DNA of 64,000 bases from Ostreococcus lucimarinus (lineage: Eukaryota), in assembly GCA_000092065.1 (NCBI GenBank), contig CP000583.1; one strand, 5' to 3'. This document shows positions 3,349-63,593 of the stretch, piece by piece; the stretch's first letter is position 1; each line of letters opens with the position of its first letter. The notes under the pieces are model-generated. The model was given only the letters and a program-made list of their open reading frames with translations, made no database searches and was not told the origin of the DNA. Made by a program: the position numbers and the translations under genes.

Positions 3349-5637
3349 CTATTTTGAAGGCTGGGGCCTCGTGAGCTCGTGCAAGAAGCGCCTCGCGAGC
3401 TCCTTCGCGTCCGATACCGCGGTGTGTCCTTCGGTGCGACGGTTGGCGCGCAAAACGTTGAGGCGTTGACAGGCGAAGCGCTTCGAGTCGCGAGCGACGC
3501 GAAGCGTCTCGACGTCGAGCGCGGCTCGACCGAGCACGGGGATCCAAAGGTCCGGGTTGTCACCTAACGCGATGATGGTCGATCGAATGGCGTCGATGGC
3601 GTTGTCGACGGTGAACGCATCGTCGGACGAACTTTCGCCATCGCGACGCGCGTCGCGAGCGAGGAGCGTTTCGAGCGCGGCGACGAAATCATCGATGAGT
3701 TTCTGACGAGTCGACTCGCCTCGTTCGCTCAACAAAAATTTGAGCGCGTCCTCCATCGCCACTTTCGTCGCTCGACGAGCCTCTTCTTCGCCATTTTCGG
3801 TCGCGCGCTCGCCCGACACGAGCTCGGTGATACCAACGACGGTTTTCTCGAGCGCTTGACGGAAATCAGATTTCGCCGTCGCGTCGGACGACGCCATCGG
3901 CGTCGTCTCGACACCGTACGCGCGAATGAGGCGTACTAAGCGCTTGTAACGAATGGATCCATCATCCGACAGCAATAATCTTCGCAGACTTTCTCGCATT
4001 TCGGGACTTCGATCGCTCAAAACTCGAGACAGTACGAAGGGATAACTCCTGTCCACGACGCGAAACGACGGGTCGATGGTCGTCGCCGTGCCTTCCAATG
4101 CCGCGAGCGCACGCAGAATGCGCGAAAAGTACGGCGGCAGTCTGAATCCATGTTTCATCAGTGCCGTGGATAACTGGGAGACGACGCCCATGAAATCGTT
4201 GCTGTTACGAACCTTGGTCGTGCTCTCGCCCGCGAAGACGGATCGCAGCGCCTCCTCCGCCGCCGCGCGGTCGACGTTTGGGGGGAGAAAATCCATGACT
4301 TTCAAGTCATCTACCAATCCCCGCGCGTCGCGATTGACGAACCCGATCAATCCGCGAACCATCGCTCGTCTGGTCTCGATCGGGACCTCCACCGTCATGC
4401 CGAAATCGAGATACGTCAAACCGCCGTTTTCGGCGACTAACAGGTTACCCGGATGCGGGTCGGTGTGCATGAATCCAGAACTCAGTAACTGATGGAGAGA
4501 CGCGCGCAAGCCTCGATCGAGGACTTCTTTCGGGGTGATCCCTCGCGATTGCATCAGCGACACGTCCGTCAAACGCAAGCCTTGCACCCACTCCATGGTC
4601 AGCACCGTGGGCGTGCTCAGAAAGTCGACGACGCGAGGCGCGTACACCAAACCCGCGAGTCCGACCCCGGCGTCGCCATTCGCGGCATACATCTCTCGAA
4701 ACCGCTCGCAACTCTCCGCCTCCTTGCTATAATCCATTTCCTCGAATATTCTCCCCACGAGCTCGTCCACGATGCCCACAACATCGCTCTTAAAGTTCCT
4801 CCACTTGCCGACGACGCCCACAAAGCGCCGCAAAATCACCGCGTCCAACGCCACGAGCTCGGCCAATCCCGGACGTTGAAGCTTAATCGCCACCTCGTGC
4901 CCCCCCGGAAGCGTCGCGCGGTACACTTGCGCGAGCGACGCCGCCGCCACGGGCGTTGGCTCAAACTTCTCGAAGAAATCAATCGAAATCCCGAGCTCGC
5001 GCTCGAGCGTCTCCAGACTCGTCGCCAAATCCGACGGCGGCAGCGCGTCCTGCAATTTCGCCAGCTCCTCCACGTACTCCACCGGAAACACGTCCGCGCG
5101 CGTCGACATCACCTGTCCCAATTTTATGTACGCCGGCCCGAGCCTCGTGAGCGTCTCCGTGAACGCTCGCGCGCGCCTTCTCCGCTCCCCCGCGCGCGCC
5201 GCGACGCCCAGCCCGATCGCCCCCAGCTCGTACCCCACCACCATCGCCCTCGCCAGCACCCGCAGCGGCCGTCTCGCGAACCACGCCTCGAACGCCTCGA
5301 CGTCGTACCGCAGCGCTCGTCGCCACGGCGCGCGCGCCTCCGTCGCCGTCGTCGTCCCCCGCGCGTCGTCGCCGCTCGTCGACGTCGTCCCGCCGTCCCG
5401 TCGCCGCGCCGCGCGCGCGTCGTCCACGAGCGCGCGCGCGCGCGCCAGCGCCGCCTCGCTCGCCCGCGCGCCGTCGTCGGCGCGCGCGCGCGCGCGTCTC
5501 GCGTCTCGCGCGCGCGCGCCGCCGTCGTCGTCGTCGTCGCGCGCCGTGCCACGCATCGCCGTCGTCATCGTTCGCGCGTCGCGCGCCGTCGCGCCGTTCC
5601 GCGCGAGCGCCGCGACGCGCCCGCGCGCGCGCATCAT
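3349..5637 (-). CDS. ABC1/ADCK/UbiB-family atypical kinase (ABC1K-like), with an Arg/Asp-rich N-terminal extension that may be a targeting peptide
   Basis: Core AFTETLTRLGPAYIKLGQVMSTRADVFPVEYVEELAKLQDALPP and the downstream kinase-like region are typical of ABC1/UbiB proteins. Start codon uncertain. Confidence 0.8.
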   Translation of the reverse strand: MMRARGRVAALARNGATARDARTMTTAMRGTARDDDDDGGARARDARRARARADDGARASEAALARARALVDDARAARRRDGGTTSTSGDDARGTTTATEARAPWRRALRYDVEAFEAWFARRPLRVLARAMVVGYELGAIGLGVAARAGERRRRARAFTETLTRLGPAYIKLGQVMSTRADVFPVEYVEELAKLQDALPPSDLATSLETLERELGISIDFFEKFEPTPVAAASLAQVYRATLPGGHEVAIKLQRPGLAELVALDAVILRRFVGVVGKWRNFKSDVVGIVDELVGRIFEEMDYSKEAESCERFREMYAANGDAGVGLAGLVYAPRVVDFLSTPTVLTMEWVQGLRLTDVSLMQSRGITPKEVLDRGLRASLHQLLSSGFMHTDPHPGNLLVAENGGLTYLDFGMTVEVPIETRRAMVRGLIGFVNRDARGLVDDLKVMDFLPPNVDRAAAEEALRSVFAGESTTKVRNSNDFMGVVSQLSTALMKHGFRLPPYFSRILRALAALEGTATTIDPSFRVVDRSYPFVLSRVLSDRSPEMRESLRRLLLSDDGSIRYKRLVRLIRAYGVETTPMASSDATAKSDFRQALEKTVVGITELVSGERATENGEEEARRATKVAMEDALKFLLSERGESTRQKLIDDFVAALETLLARDARRDGESSSDDAFTVDNAIDAIRSTIIALGDNPDLWIPVLGRAALDVETLRVARDSKRFACQRLNVLRANRRTEGHTAVSDAKELARRFLHELTRPQPSK

Positions 5638-11175: not shown

Positions 11176-11844
11176 CGGCGCGCGCACCTTTTCTCGCCCG
11201 CCATCCGTCCTTCGCGCGACCTCGGACCCGCGCCTCGCCTCGCGGCGCGTCGACGAAGAAACGACGAATGGCGTCGCGCGCGGCGTCCACGCGCGCCGAC
11301 GCGCGACCGCCCGCCCGACCCCGGGATCGCCGCGAAATCCTCGCGCGCGCGCGCGCGCGCGTCGCTCGAATCACGACTCGTCGAGTCCCTCTTTTTTTCC
11401 CAGCCCGTCGATACTGTTTGCGCGGCCGACGCCCGGCCGCGACGGCCCCCCGCGACGTCCCGCGGCGGTTTCGGGCGCGCTGGCGTGTGTAAAACGACCG
11501 ATCGTGACTCAAGCGCCGTTTACGTATTGCGCGCGCATTTCGCCAATGTATCGCGAACGCGACGCGCGCGTCGTCTCCGGGCGGTCGGTCGCCCGCCCCG
11601 CGCGACGCGCGCGAGCCGCGACGTCGACGCGCGCGCGGCAGTCGCCCGCGCGCGCGACCGCGCGAGCGCGCGCGAACGCGCGAACCGCGCGCGCGCGACC
11701 GACGGGCGAGGGAATCGACGCGCGCGCGACGATCTCGGCGACGGATCGAAGACGCGATCGATCGATCGAAGATATTTCCGCGGGCAGCGCTGGCGGAAAC
11801 GGCGCGCGCGACGCGCGCGAGGGCGAGGACGCGCGCGAGACGGG

Positions 11845-24610: not shown

Positions 24611-24899
24611 GGGTCGGTCGAGTGGGTCGATCGATCGATCGATCGATCGGTGCGTGGGTCGATCGGGTGATCGGTCGGTCGGTGGGTGATCGGTCGGTGG
24701 GTGGGTCGATCGATCGGTGGGTGGGTCGATCGATCGGTGGGTGGGTCGACTCGATCGATCGATCGGTGGATCGGTGGATCGATCGGTGGGTCGATCGATC
24801 GATCGGTGGATGGGTCGATCGATCGATCGGTGGGCGGGTCGACTCGATCGATCGATCGATCGGGGCGATCGATCGGTCGGTCGGTCGGTCGGTCGGTCG
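24611..24899. repeat. Minisatellite of about 290 bp, imperfect (GGTGGGTCGATCGATC)n, inside the divergent intergenic region between the gene starts at 24128 and 24957
   Basis: Direct reading of about 15 tandem units. Confidence 0.9.
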
Positions 24900-24956: not shown

Positions 24957-26525
24957 ATGGCGCGCGCGACGGCGGCGCGCGGCGCGGGACGCGCGGTGGA
25001 CGCGCGCGCGGGCGCGCGACGCGGGACGCGCGCGACGCGCGTCGCGCGGGCGACGCGCGCGAACCGCGCGACGACGACGACGTCATCCGCAACGGCGACG
25101 TCCGACGCGGCCGTGGACGCGTTGGAGGCGCTGCGCGAGGTGAAAATCGCGCGCGCGGTGGATGGGGTCGAGGTCGACGCGGTCGGGGACGCGATCGCGC
25201 GCGAGGGACGCGTGGCGGCGCTGTTTTTGACGCAGTTTGGGGATTTCGATTCGTGGGAGCTCGCGCAGCGATTGGTGGACGATTTGGACGCGATGAAACG
25301 GGCGGGCGTGCGCGTGGTGGCGATCGGGATCGGGAGCGCGGACGCGGCGAGGGAGTTCTCGAAGCGCACGAGGTTTCCGCTGGAGAATTTGTACGCGGAT
25401 GAGGGAGGGAAGTGTCACGAGGCGCTCGGTTTCGCGCCGGGACTCGGACGCGCGGGAGGGGATTTCGCGTGGATGGAAGACAAGACGCCGTTTGTGAACG
25501 GGTACGCGAAATTGTTGCTGATGTGCGCGGGGATTGGGTCGCCCGGGACGCTTCCGGCGGTGTTCGGGGGGTATTTTGGGTCGAAATATAAGGATGAAAT
25601 CTTTGTGGAAGGAAGCAACCTGGACGTTCCGGCGATTCGCAAGGCGATGAAACTCACGCTCGGAGACGGTTACTTGCGGCCTTTTGAGCTTGCAACGTTG
25701 CGATTGAACAACATGATTCAAATTCTCAATAACTGGGAAGCGTTGACGCCGAAGGATAGCAACTTGTTGGTGCAGCGCGGTGGGGTCATCGTCTTCGACG
25801 ACGGGAAAGCTGCGTTCAGACACGACGATCAAGGGATTTTAGGATTCTGTCCCGCCGCTCGTGTCGTGGAAAAGGCTTTGAGTGACGATCCGTCGGCGAA
25901 GCCGGATCCCGTGAAGACGTTGCACCTCGCCGCAGAGTCGCGACGGGCGTACGTGGACGATATTTTCACCTCCATCTCTGCGCTCGAAAAGTCCAAAGAC
26001 AAGGACAACGTCAAAGGCGAGGAATTGACCGGTCAGTGGCGATTGATTTACACCACGGGAACAAAGAAAGTTGCGGCGAACGTCAATCGAACGGGTGGTG
26101 GGAGCTACTTTCCCATTCCCGCCGTGCAGTCGTTTGACTTGAACTCGGGACGCATTCGCAACGGAATCTACCTCGGCCCTATTAAGTTCTTTTTCGACGG
26201 ACCATTCATCTGGCGCGAAAAGTTGGACATGTTGGAATTCACTTTTACGCGCGTGAGCTTAGCGCTCGGTTCCCTAGGACCGTGGTCGAAGGATATAGAC
26301 GACGGCAAATGGGAAGCCGTGAAAGCCGCCGAGCAAAGCGCGAGCTCTGGGCAAGGTAACATAGAGAAATCGGACGTAAAAGCATCCAAGCCCGGTGCCA
26401 ATCCTTTCTTCAAGTTCGTGTACACCGACGATAAGTGCATCGCCGCGCGAGGTCGAGGCGGTGGCTTGGCGTTGTGGGCTCGCGTCGGCGAGCCCGAGAC
26501 GGATGCTCAAGAACAGCAGCAATAA
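24957..26525 (+). CDS. Fusion protein: Ala/Arg/Thr-rich transit-like peptide, then an AhpC/TSA-like thioredoxin-fold domain (PRXL2 type), then a C-terminal PAP/fibrillin domain
   Basis: PRXL2-like VAALFLTQFGDFDSWELAQRLVDDLDAMKRAGVRVVAIGIGSADAAREFSKRTRFPLENLYAD. Fibrillin signatures GQWRLIYTTG ... FKFVYTDDKCIAARGRGGGLALWAR. Confidence 0.7.
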   Translation: MARATAARGAGRAVDARAGARRGTRATRVARATRANRATTTTSSATATSDAAVDALEALREVKIARAVDGVEVDAVGDAIAREGRVAALFLTQFGDFDSWELAQRLVDDLDAMKRAGVRVVAIGIGSADAAREFSKRTRFPLENLYADEGGKCHEALGFAPGLGRAGGDFAWMEDKTPFVNGYAKLLLMCAGIGSPGTLPAVFGGYFGSKYKDEIFVEGSNLDVPAIRKAMKLTLGDGYLRPFELATLRLNNMIQILNNWEALTPKDSNLLVQRGGVIVFDDGKAAFRHDDQGILGFCPAARVVEKALSDDPSAKPDPVKTLHLAAESRRAYVDDIFTSISALEKSKDKDNVKGEELTGQWRLIYTTGTKKVAANVNRTGGGSYFPIPAVQSFDLNSGRIRNGIYLGPIKFFFDGPFIWREKLDMLEFTFTRVSLALGSLGPWSKDIDDGKWEAVKAAEQSASSGQGNIEKSDVKASKPGANPFFKFVYTDDKCIAARGRGGGLALWARVGEPETDAQEQQQ

Positions 26526-27595: not shown

Positions 27596-28123
27596 TCGCG
27601 TCCTCGCCCCCCTCGCGCGTCGCGCGTCGTCGTCGCGTCGGCGTCGCGATCGCGGCGACGCGCGGTCGACGCGACGTTCGCGTCGCACCGCGCGCGCGTC
27701 GCGCGTCGTCGCCCGCGCGCGCCGGCGTCGCGTCGCCCGCGCGTCGCCCCGATCGCGACGATCCGGCGACGCCGACGCGACGATCGACGTCGCGCGCGCG
27801 GGCGCGCGGGCGCGAAATACCCATACACACGGATCCGAAACCACCATCACGCGCGCGGACCCGAGACACCGATAAAGCGGACCGCGCGCGCGAGATCACG
27901 CGTTTAACGTGCGCTCGACGCTATAAACGTGGATGGACGAAACGCACGAAAAACGGCGCGGCGCGCGCCGATCGGGCGAGGGGAACGAAGCGCGGGAAAC
28001 GAATCGGCGCGACGGCAAAACGGCGCGCGCGACGACGACGCGAGGCGCCGACGACGCGCGACGACGACGCGACGCGACGCGACGCGTTGATTCGCGGCGA
28101 ACGCGCGCGGTCGGGATCGGGAG

Positions 28124-30040
28124 ATGGCGCGCGGCGCGAGCGCGACGCGACGAAGAAGCGCGCGATCGAGCGCGAAGGGGACGAAGGCGATGGGTGATTC
28201 GGAGGACGGACGCGGGGGGGGGTGCGAGACGGGCGCGGGAGAGGCGACGGAGACGTTTAACTTTACGCCGATTAACGCGATGCGATCGCTGGAGAACGTG
28301 GAGCTGAGCGCGGAGCGCGAGGGAGGGATGGGGAAGCGCGCGAGGCGGGCGTCGACGCCGGCGGCGAAGAAGGCGAAGGACGGGGAGAATTTTGATACCG
28401 CCGACGTGGAGGCGACGACGACGACGACGACGACGACGGATAGCTTCACGTTTGCGATGCAAGGGGATAGGAGTGAGTCGAAGACGTTTTGGGCGACGCA
28501 GAGCGAACAGAAGCGGTTGGCGCCGTTGGCGCACACGAACGGCCTACCGCCGACGCCGGCGGTTTATAACGCGGTGCCGTGGCCGAGCTCGATCCCCCTT
28601 CGTGAAAAGTCACCACTTCGTGGTGTTCCGGCGATGTACAGTAATGCGTGTGTGACGCCGGACGGGCGCGAGTTTCAGGGACGCGTGCAGGGCGCGACGG
28701 TGTCTGCTCGAATGTCACCGCTCGTCATGGAACCTTTGGCGACGACACCCAAGGAACTTGCAGCGCAGTTGGTCGAAGTCAAGCGTGAGATTGCAAAGCG
28801 ACAAAGCGAAGCGGTCGATGTCACACGCGCTTTGCGTCAACTTCAAAGCGAGGAAGCGGACCTGTACGCCAGAGCCGCGGCGATTCAGCGACAGTTACTC
28901 GAGTGCACGAGCGACGAACAACCGTATGACTTGAATGTTACGGTACCGTCTAAAGGGGTGGCAAAATTGATAACTCTCGAAAACGAGATACATTCGAACG
29001 AAGAGACGCAGAGACGAGTCGTGCGCGAGGAAGGCTCGCCACTGAATGATCAGCAGCCGTCGACGTCTGAAATCGCCGTAAACGCTATGCAACCATTTCA
29101 AAAGCTGGATGTGCGAAAGTCATTGATTTCCCTCGATTTTATCGATGGTCCGGGTGGCTTATCACTTTTGACTGCAAGCGCTGACGACTGTCTCCGCTTG
29201 TGGGCACCCGACAGCCGAAAGCCAGCGGCACTCATGCGCGCACCCAGGGGCATGAGTGCGACGACGGTCATGAACGAGCGCATCGTTTGCGTGGGTACAG
29301 ATATGGGACAAATCGTGCAAATGGATCTCGCTACTGGCCAAATTTTTGGTGCGCTTACGCAAGGCGAACACGCGGCACCGTGGAGCGTGAAGACGCTCAC
29401 CAAGGTTGGCCGAGACGCGGAGCAACTCGTCGCCGCGGCGGGCTCGGGCGGCGACATCAAGGTCTGGGACGCACGCATCGCCATGAATGGCGGGGCTCCG
29501 ATGGTGATGTACTCACATGGTGCATCCGAGATTCGCGGGCTTTCGTTTTCATCAGACGGTCGTACCGTCGTCGCCGCGGCCTCGAACGATTTGCGCGTTT
29601 TTGACTTGCGCATGAACGGGCGTTCTACGCGAATGAACGTCGCGAGTGATTCGCAACCCTCGTGGACGTCTGTCTTGCATGATGCATCAACGAGTGAGAT
29701 CATCACAACATCTAGTGTAGGCGACGTATATGCGTGGTCTACCGCTGCGCCGTATCCGTTGTCGCGAACCGTCGCCAAAGCGTGTGCGCCAAACTCTGGC
29801 GCCGCCATCGCAACCGCGGGCGCCCTGCTCTGCGCTTCTGGCGCCGACGCGAGCGACGTGGACTTCGTTCGGCATTCATCCGGCGAAATTGTCGCTCGCT
29901 GGTCTCCCGAATCCACCGAACGCGCGTGCGTCACGTGTGTCGCCGTCAGCGACGTCGGCGCTCGAGCGCAGCCCTACGCCGCAGGTTCCTTCGCCGCAGG
30001 CACTGCCTCCGGCACCGTCGTCGTCTTTGCCTCGTCGTAA
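28124..30040 (+). CDS. Coiled-coil plus C-terminal WD40 beta-propeller protein (ATG16-like architecture, unassigned)
   Basis: Coiled coil at QLVEVKREIAKRQSEAVDVTRALRQLQSEEADLYARAAAIQRQLLE. WD repeats (DIKVWD, LRVFDL ...) follow. Confidence 0.65.
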   Translation: MARGASATRRRSARSSAKGTKAMGDSEDGRGGGCETGAGEATETFNFTPINAMRSLENVELSAEREGGMGKRARRASTPAAKKAKDGENFDTADVEATTTTTTTTDSFTFAMQGDRSESKTFWATQSEQKRLAPLAHTNGLPPTPAVYNAVPWPSSIPLREKSPLRGVPAMYSNACVTPDGREFQGRVQGATVSARMSPLVMEPLATTPKELAAQLVEVKREIAKRQSEAVDVTRALRQLQSEEADLYARAAAIQRQLLECTSDEQPYDLNVTVPSKGVAKLITLENEIHSNEETQRRVVREEGSPLNDQQPSTSEIAVNAMQPFQKLDVRKSLISLDFIDGPGGLSLLTASADDCLRLWAPDSRKPAALMRAPRGMSATTVMNERIVCVGTDMGQIVQMDLATGQIFGALTQGEHAAPWSVKTLTKVGRDAEQLVAAAGSGGDIKVWDARIAMNGGAPMVMYSHGASEIRGLSFSSDGRTVVAAASNDLRVFDLRMNGRSTRMNVASDSQPSWTSVLHDASTSEIITTSSVGDVYAWSTAAPYPLSRTVAKACAPNSGAAIATAGALLCASGADASDVDFVRHSSGEIVARWSPESTERACVTCVAVSDVGARAQPYAAGSFAAGTASGTVVVFASS

Positions 30041-30970: not shown

Positions 30971-31004
30971 GTCGGTCGGTCGGTCGATCGATCGATCGTC
31001 GTCG
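30971..31004. repeat. (GGTC)n/(GATC)n microsatellite about 40 bp upstream of the CCT5 start codon
   Basis: gtcggtcggtcggtcgatcgatcgatcgtcgtcg. Confidence 0.8.
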
Positions 31005-60028: not shown

Positions 60029-60682
60029 ATGCTGGTGCACGCTCGGTGCGCGCGCGCGTCGCGCTCGGCGCGCGCGCGGAGAAGGGCGTGCGCGCGAGCG
60101 AGGCGACGCGTCGGTGCGAGCGGTGACGATGACGAAGGACGCGGTGTTGGACGACGCGAGGACGACGCGAAGAGGGGGGAGTACGACGTGCCGTACGATG
60201 TGGTGAACGCAAAAAGCGATGATCCGTACGAGCTGAGGGTGTACGGGGCGTATTACGTCGCGGCGACCACGTACGAGAATCGCGAGCGAGGGCTGACTAC
60301 GCTGCTAGAGTACTTGGAGGGCGGGAACGTCGAGGGAGCGATGTATCCACCGACGCAGCCTTTGACGACGAGATACTTTGAGGGTGGAAAAACAATGGAA
60401 CTCGCGTTGCTCGGTCGACGAGCCAAGGAAAGTATCGCGGCGCCGTATGAAGATAGCGACGTGAAAGTGGTGGCGGGCGGCGGCGAGTTGTTGGCCGCGA
60501 TGACTTTTGAAGGCAACGCAACGCCCGATGTGGCCGAGTTTTATCGATCTAAACTCGTTTCTGCGTTACAGGCGAATGGTTTGAAGTGTGTGGACGATCA
60601 AGCGTTCCGAATAAACACGTTCGGGCCGTTATATAGTTTGAAGACGCGGCGCAACGAGCTTTTGATGCAAGTGGCAATGTGA
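60029..60682 (+). CDS. SOUL/haem-binding-protein family member
   Basis: YDVPYDVVNAKSDDPYELRVYGAYYVAATTYE ... typical of the SOUL/HBP fold. ATG about 100 bp from the divergent ABC-F start. Confidence 0.65.
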   Translation: MLVHARCARASRSARARRRACARARRRVGASGDDDEGRGVGRREDDAKRGEYDVPYDVVNAKSDDPYELRVYGAYYVAATTYENRERGLTTLLEYLEGGNVEGAMYPPTQPLTTRYFEGGKTMELALLGRRAKESIAAPYEDSDVKVVAGGGELLAAMTFEGNATPDVAEFYRSKLVSALQANGLKCVDDQAFRINTFGPLYSLKTRRNELLMQVAM

Positions 60683-61738
60683 TTCGCGCGCTTCGGGACG
60701 GCGCAAGCGGGCTCTTAGATGTACAGTTTGCGTTTCGTTCTACAATTCTCTAGAAAGCTATAGTAATATACTCTGTTAACGATCGGTATCGCCAACCTGC
60801 TCGGATGACGTGTTGTAAAAGAGAAAACCATCACGCGGTGCAAATTCGAAATTTTTCGAAAATGTCGCCAGCCCCACCGCGCGTAGCTCTCAGAGTCAAC
60901 GGTAACTCTCAATGTGAGTAAAACCAGTAAAATTATGTCAGTGCGTAGCGTGTCCTTTACGCTGTCCGGCCAGCAACCTCGCCGCCTCGACGGCCTCCTT
61001 CGCCAGTCTCTGGTGTTTGCGACGCGCGATTTTCGCATCCGCCGCGGCGCGCTTCTGTGCCGGCGTCAGCGCGTCTCGTCGCCTCTGCGACCGCAGCCGT
61101 TCCTTCTCTCGATGCTCGGGGGTCTGAACCAACCGACGCCGTATGCTTCGCATTCTCTTGCGATCGGATTCCGTCGCGTCGGCCGCGTCGGCCTCGTACT
61201 CCGGCACGATGACTATCGCCACCTTGGTCTCGCCCGCCCCCCCCCCCGTCGCCTCCCTCTCGCCGCTCGCGCCCGTCTCCTCGCCCTCTTCTTCCCCACG
61301 ACCGACCTCGTTCTTTTTTTCTTCCCGCGCGTCGCGGTCGTCCGCGTCCGCGCCGTCGCGCGCCGCTCGCGCGTCCTCCTCCTCGCCGTCGATGAATCGC
61401 AATCGCGGCAGCGCCGCGTCCCGCGCGCGCGCGCGTCTTCCGCCCCTACCCGTCGCCGCCGTCGTCGTCGCCGCCATCGGACGCGCGATCGGGCGACGCG
61501 ATCGACGATCGTCGTCCATCGCGCGCCTCGATCGCGCCGATCGCGCGCGTTCGCGCCGCGCGTCCGACACTCGCGCGACCGCGCGACCGCGCGATCGCGC
61601 GGACGCGCCAGCGGACGCGCCTCGCGGATACGCAGTTACGCTTTGCGCAGTGACGCGGATATCGCGCGCGTCGCGATCGACGTCGATCGATCATCGCGAT
61701 CGACGACGATCGACGCGTCGAGGTTCGATCGATCGTTC

Positions 61739-61853
61739 GGGTCCGCTTTAAGTAGTTTGGGTCCGCTTTAGTGGTATTTGGATCCGTCATGCTATCTTGG
61801 GTCCGCCCTCAGTGGTCGTCCGGCGTCGCGGGTCCGCCCTCGGTGGTATTTTT
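61739..61853. repeat. Five tandem units of about 20-22 bp (GGGTCCGC[C/T]YT-N-AGTGGT...) flanked on both sides by GATC-rich palindromic blocks (61660..61738 and 61858..61960). This composite element ends about 60 bp upstream of the PRPF19 ATG
   Basis: Direct reading: gggtccgctttaagtagttt / gggtccgctttagtggtattt / ggatccgtcatgctatctt / gggtccgccctcagtggtcg... / gggtccgccctcggtggtattttt. The right flank contains (GATC)10. Confidence 0.85.
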
Positions 61854-62023
61854 CGGCGATCGATCGCGACGTCGATCGATCGATCGATCGATCGATCGAT
61901 CGACGCATCGACGCATCGAGGCGTCGATCGCGACGCGCGATCGATCGATCGCGTCGCGCGTCCGTCCGCGCGCGCGTCCGTCCGCGCGCGCCGCCGGCGC
62001 GCGGGAGTGCGCGACGCCGGGGC

Positions 62024-62119
62024 ATGTTTTGCGCGATCAGTGGGGCGGCGCCGGCGCGCCCGGTGGTGACGCCGAGAGGCGTGCTGTACGAGAGATCGTT
62101 GATCGTGAAGGCGATCGAG
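62024..62119 (+). CDS. PRPF19: PRPF19 exon 1 (U-box start MFCAISGAAPARPVVTPRGVLYERSLIVKAIE), followed by a GTGCGC donor
   Basis: Matches the PRP19 U-box N-terminus (human [34 protein letters not shown]). Confidence 0.75.
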
Positions 62120-62252
62120 GTGCGCGCGCGAACCGAGGGCGAGGGGAGGGCGATGGGAGGACGCGCGCGGGCGATCGCGGCGAACGGGGCGCGGATGCGA
62201 CGTGAATTGTGACGCGCGAATGCTGACCGGAACGCGCGATTTACGACGATAG

Positions 62253-63593
62253 GAACGAGGCGAGTGCCCGGTGACGAAAGAATCGCTGAGCGTGGACGAT
62301 TTGATCGAACTCAAGGCGCAGAAATGGGTGAACCCGCGACCGGAGGCGACGATGTCGGTGCCAGGGTTGTTGAGCGCGTTTCACAACGAGTGGGACGCGT
62401 TGATGCTAGAAACGCACACGCTGCGGAAGGAATTACAAACGACCAGGCAAGAGTTGAGTCATGCGTTGTACCAACACGATGCCGCGTGTCGAGTGATCGC
62501 ACGGTTGATGAAGGAGAGAGATGATGCCAGAGACGCGCTCGCGAACGCGAAGGGGTCGGCGAAGCGAAGCGCCGCGGGGGACGCCGAACCGGAATCGAAA
62601 AAGGTCAAGGCGGGACTTCCGGCGGCTGTCGTGGCGAAAATGAATGACGTGCAGAAGGAACTTTCGAGTGGACGCAAGAAGCGCGAAATTTCGAGCGAAT
62701 TGGCGACGATGGGGGATATCTCGGCGTACGAAGCCAAGGTGACGCAAGCTGTGCACAAGACGTCGCCTGCAGGCATCAACGCCGTGGCGATCAAAGCGGG
62801 CGACGATAACGTCATCGCCACGGCGGGTAACGATCATACTGTGGCAATCTTTGACAAAGTAAGCTCGCAGCGCGTTCAGCAGCTCAGCGGACATTCCAAG
62901 AAGGTTCTCGACGTCAAGTTTGTCGGCGACAACGTGTTGTCGTGTGGCGCGGACAAAGTCGTCAAGCTTTGGGGTGCCGATGGCTCTGAGATTGCAACGT
63001 TCGGTGATCACACTGGTGATGTAACCAGCGTCAGCGTGCATCCCTCGAACAGCTATTTTGTGTCCACTTCAACGGACAAGACTTGGGGATTTCACGACCT
63101 TACCACGAGCTCGTGCATCACCTTGGTGAACGACGACACCGATTCTGCCATCACGTGCGCAAATTTCCACCCCGATGGTGTGATTTTGGGAGCGGGCACG
63201 AAGGATTCGGTAGTTAAGCTTTGGGATGCTAAAGATGCGCGCAAGTTGCTTCAATTAGACGGCCATGCGAGCGAGATTACCGGTTTGTCTTTCTCGGAAA
63301 ATGGCTACTATCTCGCCTCTGCGGCTAAGGACGGTGTGAAGATTTGGGACCTTCGAAAGTCCAAGCTCGTTCACGAGATCGAATGTGCTGGCGCACAGGG
63401 CGTTGCTTTCGACCACAGCGGGTCTTACATCGCCACTGGCGGTCACAATGCGTCCGTTTACCAGGTGAAAGGCAAGTGGGAATTGGTCAAGGAGTTTGAG
63501 GTGAAGAAGGCTGTCAAGGCTGTCGCCTTCGGCGGCGACGCGCGGTCGCTCGTCGTCGCTAGTGCCGACCATAACTTGCGTATCTTCGCTTAG
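62253..63593 (+). CDS. PRPF19: PRPF19 exon 2 (ERGECPVTKESLS ... coiled coil ... 7 WD40 repeats, to the stop)
   Basis: HNEWDALMLETHTLRKELQTTRQELSHALYQHDAACRVIARL is near-identical to the PRP19 central region. A TAG acceptor precedes the exon. Boundary +/-2. Confidence 0.8.
   Translation, partial: ERGECPVTKESLSVDDLIELKAQKWVNPRPEATMSVPGLLSAFHNEWDALMLETHTLRKELQTTRQELSHALYQHDAACRVIARLMKERDDARDALANAKGSAKRSAAGDAEPESKKVKAGLPAAVVAKMNDVQKELSSGRKKREISSELATMGDISAYEAKVTQAVHKTSPAGINAVAIKAGDDNVIATAGNDHTVAIFDKVSSQRVQQLSGHSKKVLDVKFVGDNVLSCGADKVVKLWGADGSEIATFGDHTGDVTSVSVHPSNSYFVSTSTDKTWGFHDLTTSSCITLVNDDTDSAITCANFHPDGVILGAGTKDSVVKLWDAKDARKLLQLDGHASEITGLSFSENGYYLASAAKDGVKIWDLRKSKLVHEIECAGAQGVAFDHSGSYIATGGHNASVYQVKGKWELVKEFEVKKAVKAVAFGGDARSLVVASADHNLRIFA

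Follow-up and report, generated by a model that had tools for sequence, protein, structure and literature searches.

The 64-kb stretch of contig CP000583.1 analysed here (referred to throughout as the window) contains the gene PRPF19 and, on the opposite strand, a probable small gene that is divergent from it. The intergenic region of approximately 500 bp between the two is occupied by an array of short repeats, together with the two GATC-rich blocks that flank it (Table 1). An earlier note on this DNA had described these features as an organised structure, and had proposed that the repeats are either a clustered transcription factor site or a miniature transposable element with termini made of GATC repeats. 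Our analysis indicates that the repeats upstream of PRPF19 are very probably one leftover, solitary terminal inverted repeat (TIR) of a Mutator-like transposon (Mutator-like element, MULE), an ordinary relic that lies within a GATC-rich tract of the host. Read this way, an apparently organised promoter device would be a transposon end within a microsatellite, and a false lead would be removed.

Table 1. Coordinates of features in and around the PRPF19 upstream region (window positions).
Feature	Coordinates	Strand	Sequence	Description
Probable small basic-protein gene, divergent from PRPF19	60938-61522	-		Open reading frame (ORF); gene status tentative
GATC-rich block A, left of the insertion	61661-61738	.		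Tandem Repeats Finder (TRF) period 4/10 at 61674-61739
Probable solo TIR, right-end orientation	61734-61821	+		Inner edge at 61734; outer terminus ...CAGTGGTCGTCC at 61821; four ~21-bp direct sub-repeats (U1-U4)
U1	61739-61758		GGGTCCGCTTTAAGTAGTTT	
U2	61759-61779		GGGTCCGCTTTAGTGGTATTT	
U3	61780-61798		GGATCCGTCATGCTATCTT	Degenerate
U4	61799-61821		GGGTCCGCCCTCAGTGGTCGTCC	
8-bp spacer plus fifth unit	61822-61855	+		Second copy of the terminal unit, with the alternative ...GGTATTTTTCG terminus of the variant ("family 2") TIR
Spacer between U4 and U5	from 61822		GGCGTCGC	8 bp
U5	61830-61855		GGGTCCGCCCTCGGTGGTATTTTTCG	
GATC-rich block B	61857-61951	.		(GATC)7 at 61874-61901 and (GATC)3 at 61939-61950; TRF period 4, 25.5 copies
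16-bp tandem repeat between block B and the start codon	61950-61991	.	CGCGCGCGCGTCCGTC	2.6 copies; TRF score 75, 96% matches
PRPF19	62024-63593	+		Exon 1, 62024-62119; intron, 62120-62252 (GT..AG, 133 nt, after codon 32); exon 2, 62253-63593

The five units of the array open with GG(G/A)TCCG at positions 61739, 61759, 61780, 61799 and 61830. The exact motif GGGTCCGCYYT was found by pattern search four times in the window, every time within the array, while the chance expectation estimated from 100 shuffles is 0.11 and a count of four was reached in none of them. With four exact units and one degenerate unit against this expectation, the array is real; the two GATC-rich blocks beside it are real as well. 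Their description as a regular tandem array of five 20-bp copies did not hold, as the spacing of the units is uneven (20, 21, 19 and 31 bp), the GGGTCCGC core is carried by only four of the five, and TRF did not call the array even at a minimum score of 30. TRF is silent here because the units are too divergent and too unevenly spaced, and the array rests on pattern search and repeat finding instead. A T-run after U5 had suggested a small RNA of the Pol III type; this candidate was dropped given the identification of the TIR and the result of an Rfam search of 60600-62300, in which all 27 matches were below gathering scores and fell on GATC or GC low-complexity tracts, indicating that there is no RNA gene in this interval.

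Sequences related to the array are found in metagenome contigs (given here by their L-numbers), which we scanned for the 18-mer GGGTCCGCCCTCRGTGGT. Inspection of the context of the 99 stretches obtained showed that roughly two-thirds are chance matches in unrelated GC-rich contigs, and these were set aside; among viral contigs the same scan gave one chance match, which lacks the TIR context. Approximately one-third of the stretches carry a whole block (...GGGTCCGCTTTAAGTAGTTTGGGTCCGCTTTAGTGGTATTTGGATCCGTTATAGTGCTATCTTGGGTCCGCCCTCAGTGGTCGTCC), and their flanks diverge directly after ...GTCGTCC. This block of ~86 bp is present at at least 15 sites besides PRPF19, a count that pools whatever Ostreococcus strains the metagenomes contain. 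A long common block whose flanks differ from contig to contig is what marks the terminus of a mobile element with copies at multiple sites.

The remainder of this element can be read from several of the contigs. L068 carries two copies of the block as inverted repeats (337-427 and 1957-2047), identical at 91 of 91 positions and 1.7 kb apart. Many copies continue inward into a common internal sequence and a transposase ORF (L027, L068, L086 and L124), and in two of these contigs, L086 and L124, the block borders an intact ORF of 739 aa. The product of the L086 ORF matches the Pfam MULE domain PF10551 with 35.0 bits (cut-off 27.6; E 1.9e-8), a domain also present in all eight of its database homologues, and its match to Transposase_mut (PF00872) lies just below the cut-off (20.4 versus 21). 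No FAR1/WRKY or SWIM finger was found in this ORF by Pfam at E<=0.1. The intact ends share the same TIR of 86-91 bp, which comprises four ~21-bp direct sub-repeats with the core GGGTCCGC(T/C)(T/C)T..GTGGT and the terminus ...CAGTGGTCGTCC, and TIR lengths across the family range from 86 to 110 bp. In two further subfamilies, with transposases of 58-61% identity, the TIRs comprise three to five direct repeats with the related core GG[G/T][T/A]CCG.TTTA.GT, and those of one subfamily likewise end in CAGTGGTCGTCC. The repeats of these two subfamilies are spaced 19-22 bp apart, the same range that is seen across all three diverged subfamilies.

The repeats upstream of PRPF19 correspond to this TIR along its length. 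Window positions 61733-61821 are 92% identical to both TIRs of L068 over 91-92 bp (blastn, E 1e-32), and a TIR profile built from 13 copies other than that at PRPF19 detects 61735-61820 when searched against the window (nhmmer, 83.8 bits, E 3.6e-25). The alignment with the L068 TIR is collinear, unit for unit, over 86-91 bp with a 3-bp deletion in U3, and the shared 86-bp block includes the non-core spacers and not merely the repeated core. Homology begins at CGTTC (61734), just inside U1, and ends at 61821. The fifth unit matches the profile weakly (nhmmer, E 0.09) and carries the variant terminus, which is also found in L035, L069, L101 and L077 and in the conspecific haplotypes L016, L017, L018 and L020. 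In the full-length element of L124 the terminal unit is duplicated at both ends, which makes duplication of the terminal unit a property of the family. An inverted second end near 61.7 kb was detected neither by blastn with the L068 TIRs nor by a profile search of the window, and the window contains no element-internal sequence and no transposase gene; the feature is therefore a solo TIR. At a distance of ~34 kb from the array, positions 27806-27889 on the minus strand may tentatively be read as a degenerate relic of a related MULE TIR (nhmmer 27806-27883, E 0.023 only), with units beginning CGGTCCGCTTTA.., GGGTCCGCG..GGTGGTTTC and GGATCCGTG... on that strand. It lies in the divergent intergenic region between ORFs that end near 27847 and start at 28124.

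Several observations weigh against the identification of the array as a MULE end. Target-site duplication, a defining mark of transposition, is not cleanly demonstrable: none was found at the two-ended copies, namely L068 and an 83-bp mini-element in L034, and the CGATCGATCG that stands on both sides of 61739-61855 is not distinguishable from the microsatellite motif itself. The metagenome assemblies may be chimeric at repeats, the family is represented within the window by one good copy and one doubtful relic only, and with 86-91 bp the TIR falls a little short of the 100-500 bp given for plant MULEs. Direct repeats of 10 bp (GCCGGTTCGG) flank the deletion derivatives in L065, L079 and L105, and the solo TIR in L035 is flanked by a direct repeat of 9-10 bp ((C)GCATTTTTC / CGCATTTTTC). 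In L124 the flanks beyond the TIRs (1-32 and 2574-2605) are exact reverse complements of one another, which is probably an artefact of short-read assembly at an inverted repeat, and this contig is therefore unusable for reading a target-site duplication. A separate observation concerns the inner side of the relics. Independent solo TIRs (L031, L035, L055, L059 and window 61734) share a common inner breakpoint, no more than ~5 bp from the first unit, and several of them are flanked by direct repeats of 7-10 bp; one constant inner break is unexpected under random internal deletion.

With its MULE-domain transposase and long TIRs, the Ostreococcus family has two defining features of the Mutator superfamily, and the near identity of its paired TIRs is a further likeness to Mutator/MuDR and the MULEs of plants. 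Solo TIRs, tandem TIRs and deletion derivatives have been described among plant MULEs, whose TIRs hold transposase-binding sites and promoters, the promoter of maize MuDR being located in the TIR (PMC3310237). The Ostreococcus family likewise includes solo TIRs, duplicated TIRs and internally deleted derivatives, as well as copies near the 5' ends of genes. It differs from the plant elements in that its TIR consists almost wholly of four ~21-bp direct repeats, whereas a single ~32-bp binding site is found in plants, and in that the 9-11-bp target-site duplication is not cleanly seen. MULEs have also been reported in O. tauri and other Mamiellales, mainly in the low-GC "outlier" portions of chromosomes and in the vicinity of giant PKS genes (bioRxiv 10.1101/2025.04.21.649811). 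While these elements of O. tauri and the Mamiellales belong to the same genus and the same transposon superfamily, the PRPF19 relic is a solo TIR and not an element, and it lies in a window of ~60% GC that is dense with housekeeping genes. Our literature search found no description of the TIR of this MULE family, for which the contigs provide a usable account: a marine picoalgal family with an 86-91-bp TIR of four ~21-bp units and a 739-aa transposase.

The ~21-bp sub-repeats are most likely transposase-binding sites, a prediction made because their architecture is conserved across subfamilies whose transposases are 58-61% identical. Active elements would carry four or five copies of the unit at each end, and the units, placed two helical turns apart and thus on one face of the helix, would allow several transposase molecules to be loaded per end. 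Several direct copies of a short transposase-binding motif per inverted end are known from the IR/DR ends of Sleeping Beauty and Tc3 and from the subterminal arrays of En/Spm and Ac; these belong to other superfamilies, and the resemblance to the Ostreococcus TIR would be architectural only. As for the history of the locus, we propose that a MULE inserted into a pre-existing GATC-rich microsatellite or palindrome and split the palindrome in two, such that the GATC blocks would flank the TIR because the element landed inside a GATC-rich tract. The remainder of the element would subsequently have been lost, and the terminal unit duplicated with a variant terminus to give U5. As the relic is one-ended, it cannot transpose.

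Ten conspecific contigs, which were fetched via the PRPF19 protein and hence blind to the motif, all contain the insertion, and the first and last units are retained in all ten. Five units are present in six haplotypes when the window itself is counted, approximately 50 bp including U5 have been lost in L015, and four haplotypes carry a variant allele with two or three units (L016, L017, L018 and L020, which share the variant terminus). In L017 (= L119), a module of ~157 bp consisting of the TIR and a GATC block is present three times. At L017 2196-2260 (= L119 2411-2475), a 65-bp AT-rich segment (GGGCTGGTCGAAAGAAAGTGACCC...CAATTTGAC) that has no match among the sequences compared stands in place of block A, and is followed by the extra TIR-plus-GATC modules. 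Errors of short-read assembly may add to the differences between haplotypes, several of which recur in independent samples. A further conspecific contig, L001, starts inside the fifth unit (its position 1 is window 61832), as would fit breakage of short-read assemblies at the array and the GATC tracts, and this is a caution for all haplotype calls at the PRPF19 promoter.

None of the PRPF19 promoters examined in four further Ostreococcus species (L004, L010, L125 and L127) contains the TIR. Taken together with its presence in ten of ten conspecific contigs, this indicates that the insertion is species-specific and fixed as far as sampled; the locus is thus fixed in the sampled population but structurally unstable. 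The earlier note had named two outcomes that would speak against its reading, that the 20-mer is unique and that it is not conserved. The first was not borne out, as the 20-mer is multicopy with at least 15 other sites; the second applies between species, yet the 20-mer is present in all sampled conspecific strains. The promoter of L004 contains two tandem units of ~33 bp (TGAGACCACGTGTGCGTGCGATGTGGACCGTCG; 4708-4775) that include CACGTG and end 44 bp upstream of the PRPF19 ATG. Since this repeat is unrelated to the TIR, different species have different repeats at the same PRPF19 promoter. An apparent motif in common with the promoter of O. mediterraneus (GTGGTAT...ATCCGTCA in L010) was noticed by eye and is too short to evaluate.

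We next considered whether the transposon end has been exapted, such that the TIR is now part of the promoter of PRPF19 and/or of its neighbour and is kept by selection, in analogy with the Mu TIR promoters of maize. Only ~42 bp separate the inner edge of the TIR from the transposase ATG in full-length elements, so the promoter of the element would lie largely within the TIR, and in the window the inward direction of such a promoter faces the divergent minus-strand gene. MULE TIR promoters are documented (PMC3310237), and the presence of the insertion in all ten conspecific contigs is also consistent with retention. At least five other copies of the TIR precede Pfam-confirmed genes at 51-93 bp from the start codon; these genes encode a thioredoxin, a cytidylyltransferase, a peroxidase, an RRM protein and a Tcp10_C protein. 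In this genome, which has hardly any DNA to spare, such copies are located directly at gene starts. However, MULEs and Mutator elements favour insertion at the 5' ends of genes, which makes proximity to start codons expected anyway, and the positions of these TIRs fit a Mutator 5' preference and retention for function equally. Furthermore, the central portion of the TIR is hypervariable within the population, with units freely lost or replaced, which argues against strong constraint, and the four sister species express PRPF19 without it. We regard exaptation as unlikely, and the relic as probably neutral or nearly so for PRPF19 expression; it may be inert, or it may lend putative promoter activity inward to the neighbour or outward to PRPF19.

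A related possibility, to which we give a similarly low probability, is that solo MULE ends are portable promoter cassettes, repeatedly retained at 50-200 bp from downstream start codons for the promoter activity of the TIR, while their array of binding sites keeps the structure of these promoters hypervariable. Expression polymorphism at essential genes such as PRPF19 would then arise from residual cleavage at one end or from ectopic repair involving other copies. Should such relics affect transcription or favour rearrangement nearby, one of the most abundant eukaryotic phototrophs in the ocean would owe some of its regulatory variation to them.

The interpretation of the array as a solo MULE end treats the GATC-rich blocks as sequence of the host, and we examined these blocks on their own terms. 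The 500-bp bin that begins at 61501 contains 25 GATC tetranucleotides, compared with 0-8 in all other bins save two. Within it, a perfect 18-nt inverted repeat (61665-61682 and 61922-61939) links block A to block B and brackets the array. Block B is length-polymorphic, with the numbers of GATC and ACGCATCG units varying among the conspecific contigs L001 and L012-L021, and the blocks are microsatellites in that they consist of short head-to-tail units and differ in length between individuals. Some particulars of the earlier description of block B required correction: the longest perfect run is (GATC)7 rather than (GATC)10, and 72 bp, rather than 60 bp, lie between the block and the ATG at 62024.

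GATC tracts are also found elsewhere in the window. The sequence GATCGATCGATC occurs 22 times where 0.03 occurrences are expected, at five separate spots, and (GATC)n runs of at least three units are located at 171-202, 11756-11767, 24629-24861, 30986-30997 and 61874-61950. All three of the five spots that were inspected by reading lie just upstream of start codons, the run at 171-202 ending 23 bp before the ATG at 226 and that at 24629-24861 preceding the ATG at 24958 by ~100-330 bp. Between 24560 and 24900 the tract forms a complex array in which GATC and GGTG/GGTC units are intermingled. In two of the four sister species (L010 and L125), GATC-rich palindromes are found upstream of PRPF19 without a TIR, and the palindrome of L125 has 46-nt arms that are 91% complementary. 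Block A has no homology to the transposon interior, and the flanks of other TIR copies are unrelated to the GATC blocks. As these flanks differ, as GATC tracts occur without a TIR at other gene starts and in sister-species promoters, and as the 18-nt inverted repeat brackets the array, the GATC blocks are a microsatellite or palindrome of the host and not termini of the element.

Enrichment of tandem repeats in 5' regions has been reviewed (PMC3887541), and the (GATC)n blocks resemble the promoter and 5'-UTR microsatellites of plants and yeast in their period of 4, their position just upstream of start codons and their strain-variable length. They differ in that the Ostreococcus motif is a palindromic tetranucleotide, GATC/CGAT, which often forms long inverted repeats capable of folding into hairpins. 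A literature search on GATC repeats in Ostreococcus promoters returned nothing relevant, most papers that mention "GATC" apparently not concerning a DNA motif. The placement of palindromic (GATC)n tracts before start codons may merit a separate study.

Alternatively, the two GATC-rich blocks could be the inverted termini of a complete miniature inverted-repeat transposable element with the 20-mers as its cargo, as the perfect 18-nt inverted repeat around the array and the tandem repetition of the TIR-plus-GATC unit in L017/L119 might suggest. We consider this very improbable, since no other composite copy was found, every 18-mer match with GATC flanks being the PRPF19 locus itself; the flanks of the remaining TIR copies are unrelated; sister-species PRPF19 promoters and further promoters in the window have GATC palindromes but lack the 20-mers; and the repetition seen in L017 amounts to a local tandem duplication of the kind expected from unequal exchange between GATC tracts. 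The suggestion of a miniature element with GATC termini therefore appears right as to transposon origin and wrong as to anatomy, in that the 20-bp repeats are the terminus and the GATC blocks are host sequence. Hardly tenable at all is the proposal that the 20-mers are clustered cellular transcription factor sites that regulate PRPF19 and are unrelated to transposons: while their close spacing, near helical phasing, and their position ~200 bp upstream of the ATG would suit such a module, the GGGTCCGC core is not above chance elsewhere (six occurrences in the window against 3.7 expected, four of the six at the array), the 20-mers have no counterpart in the orthologous promoters of the four sister species and do not recur as exact copies elsewhere in the window, and the entire 86-bp block, non-core spacers included, is collinear with the TIR and common to the ends of transposase-bearing elements.

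The identification of the downstream gene as PRPF19 was confirmed. Its spliced translation of 478 aa matches the Pfam family Prp19 (PF08606) with 119 bits (cut-off 22.7) and WD40_Prp19 with E 1e-94, the score of the latter (316.9 bits) being slightly under the curated cut-off of 320. Homologues in green plants are ~45-52% identical, while the nearest relatives are metagenome proteins of 79-99% identity, one 79%-identical cluster of which includes a UniRef entry from Ostreococcus mediterraneus; the index of the assembly collection lists the exact exon-2 protein in 1113 blocks. The gene order LSM, ABC-F, SOUL, small ORF, PRPF19, RecQ and coatomer-epsilon is kept in related contigs, and this conserved order, along with the closest relatives of PRPF19, places the window in an Ostreococcus species. 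The position of the PRPF19 intron after codon 32 is kept across Ostreococcus, as judged from window 62120-62252, L010 1056-1383 and L125 about 2226-2482; the intron is GC-rich and of low complexity, and its length ranges from 133 nt to ~330 nt.

On the other side of the intergenic region, most of what had been described as a low-complexity region to the left of the array falls in the 5' portion of the probable minus-strand gene. Gene calls of 150-193 aa occupy the syntenic position in other Ostreococcus contigs, and the products share a conserved core, RERERLRSQRRRDA, with 68% identity over 31 aa. Its status as a gene is tentative because conservation is limited to this short core, the BLAST E value is only 1.1, and a Pfam search of the ORF product gave no match. 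Within the 5' part of this probable gene, a poly-C run at window 61238-61249 (about 1800-1815 in L017) apparently varies in length between conspecific contigs.

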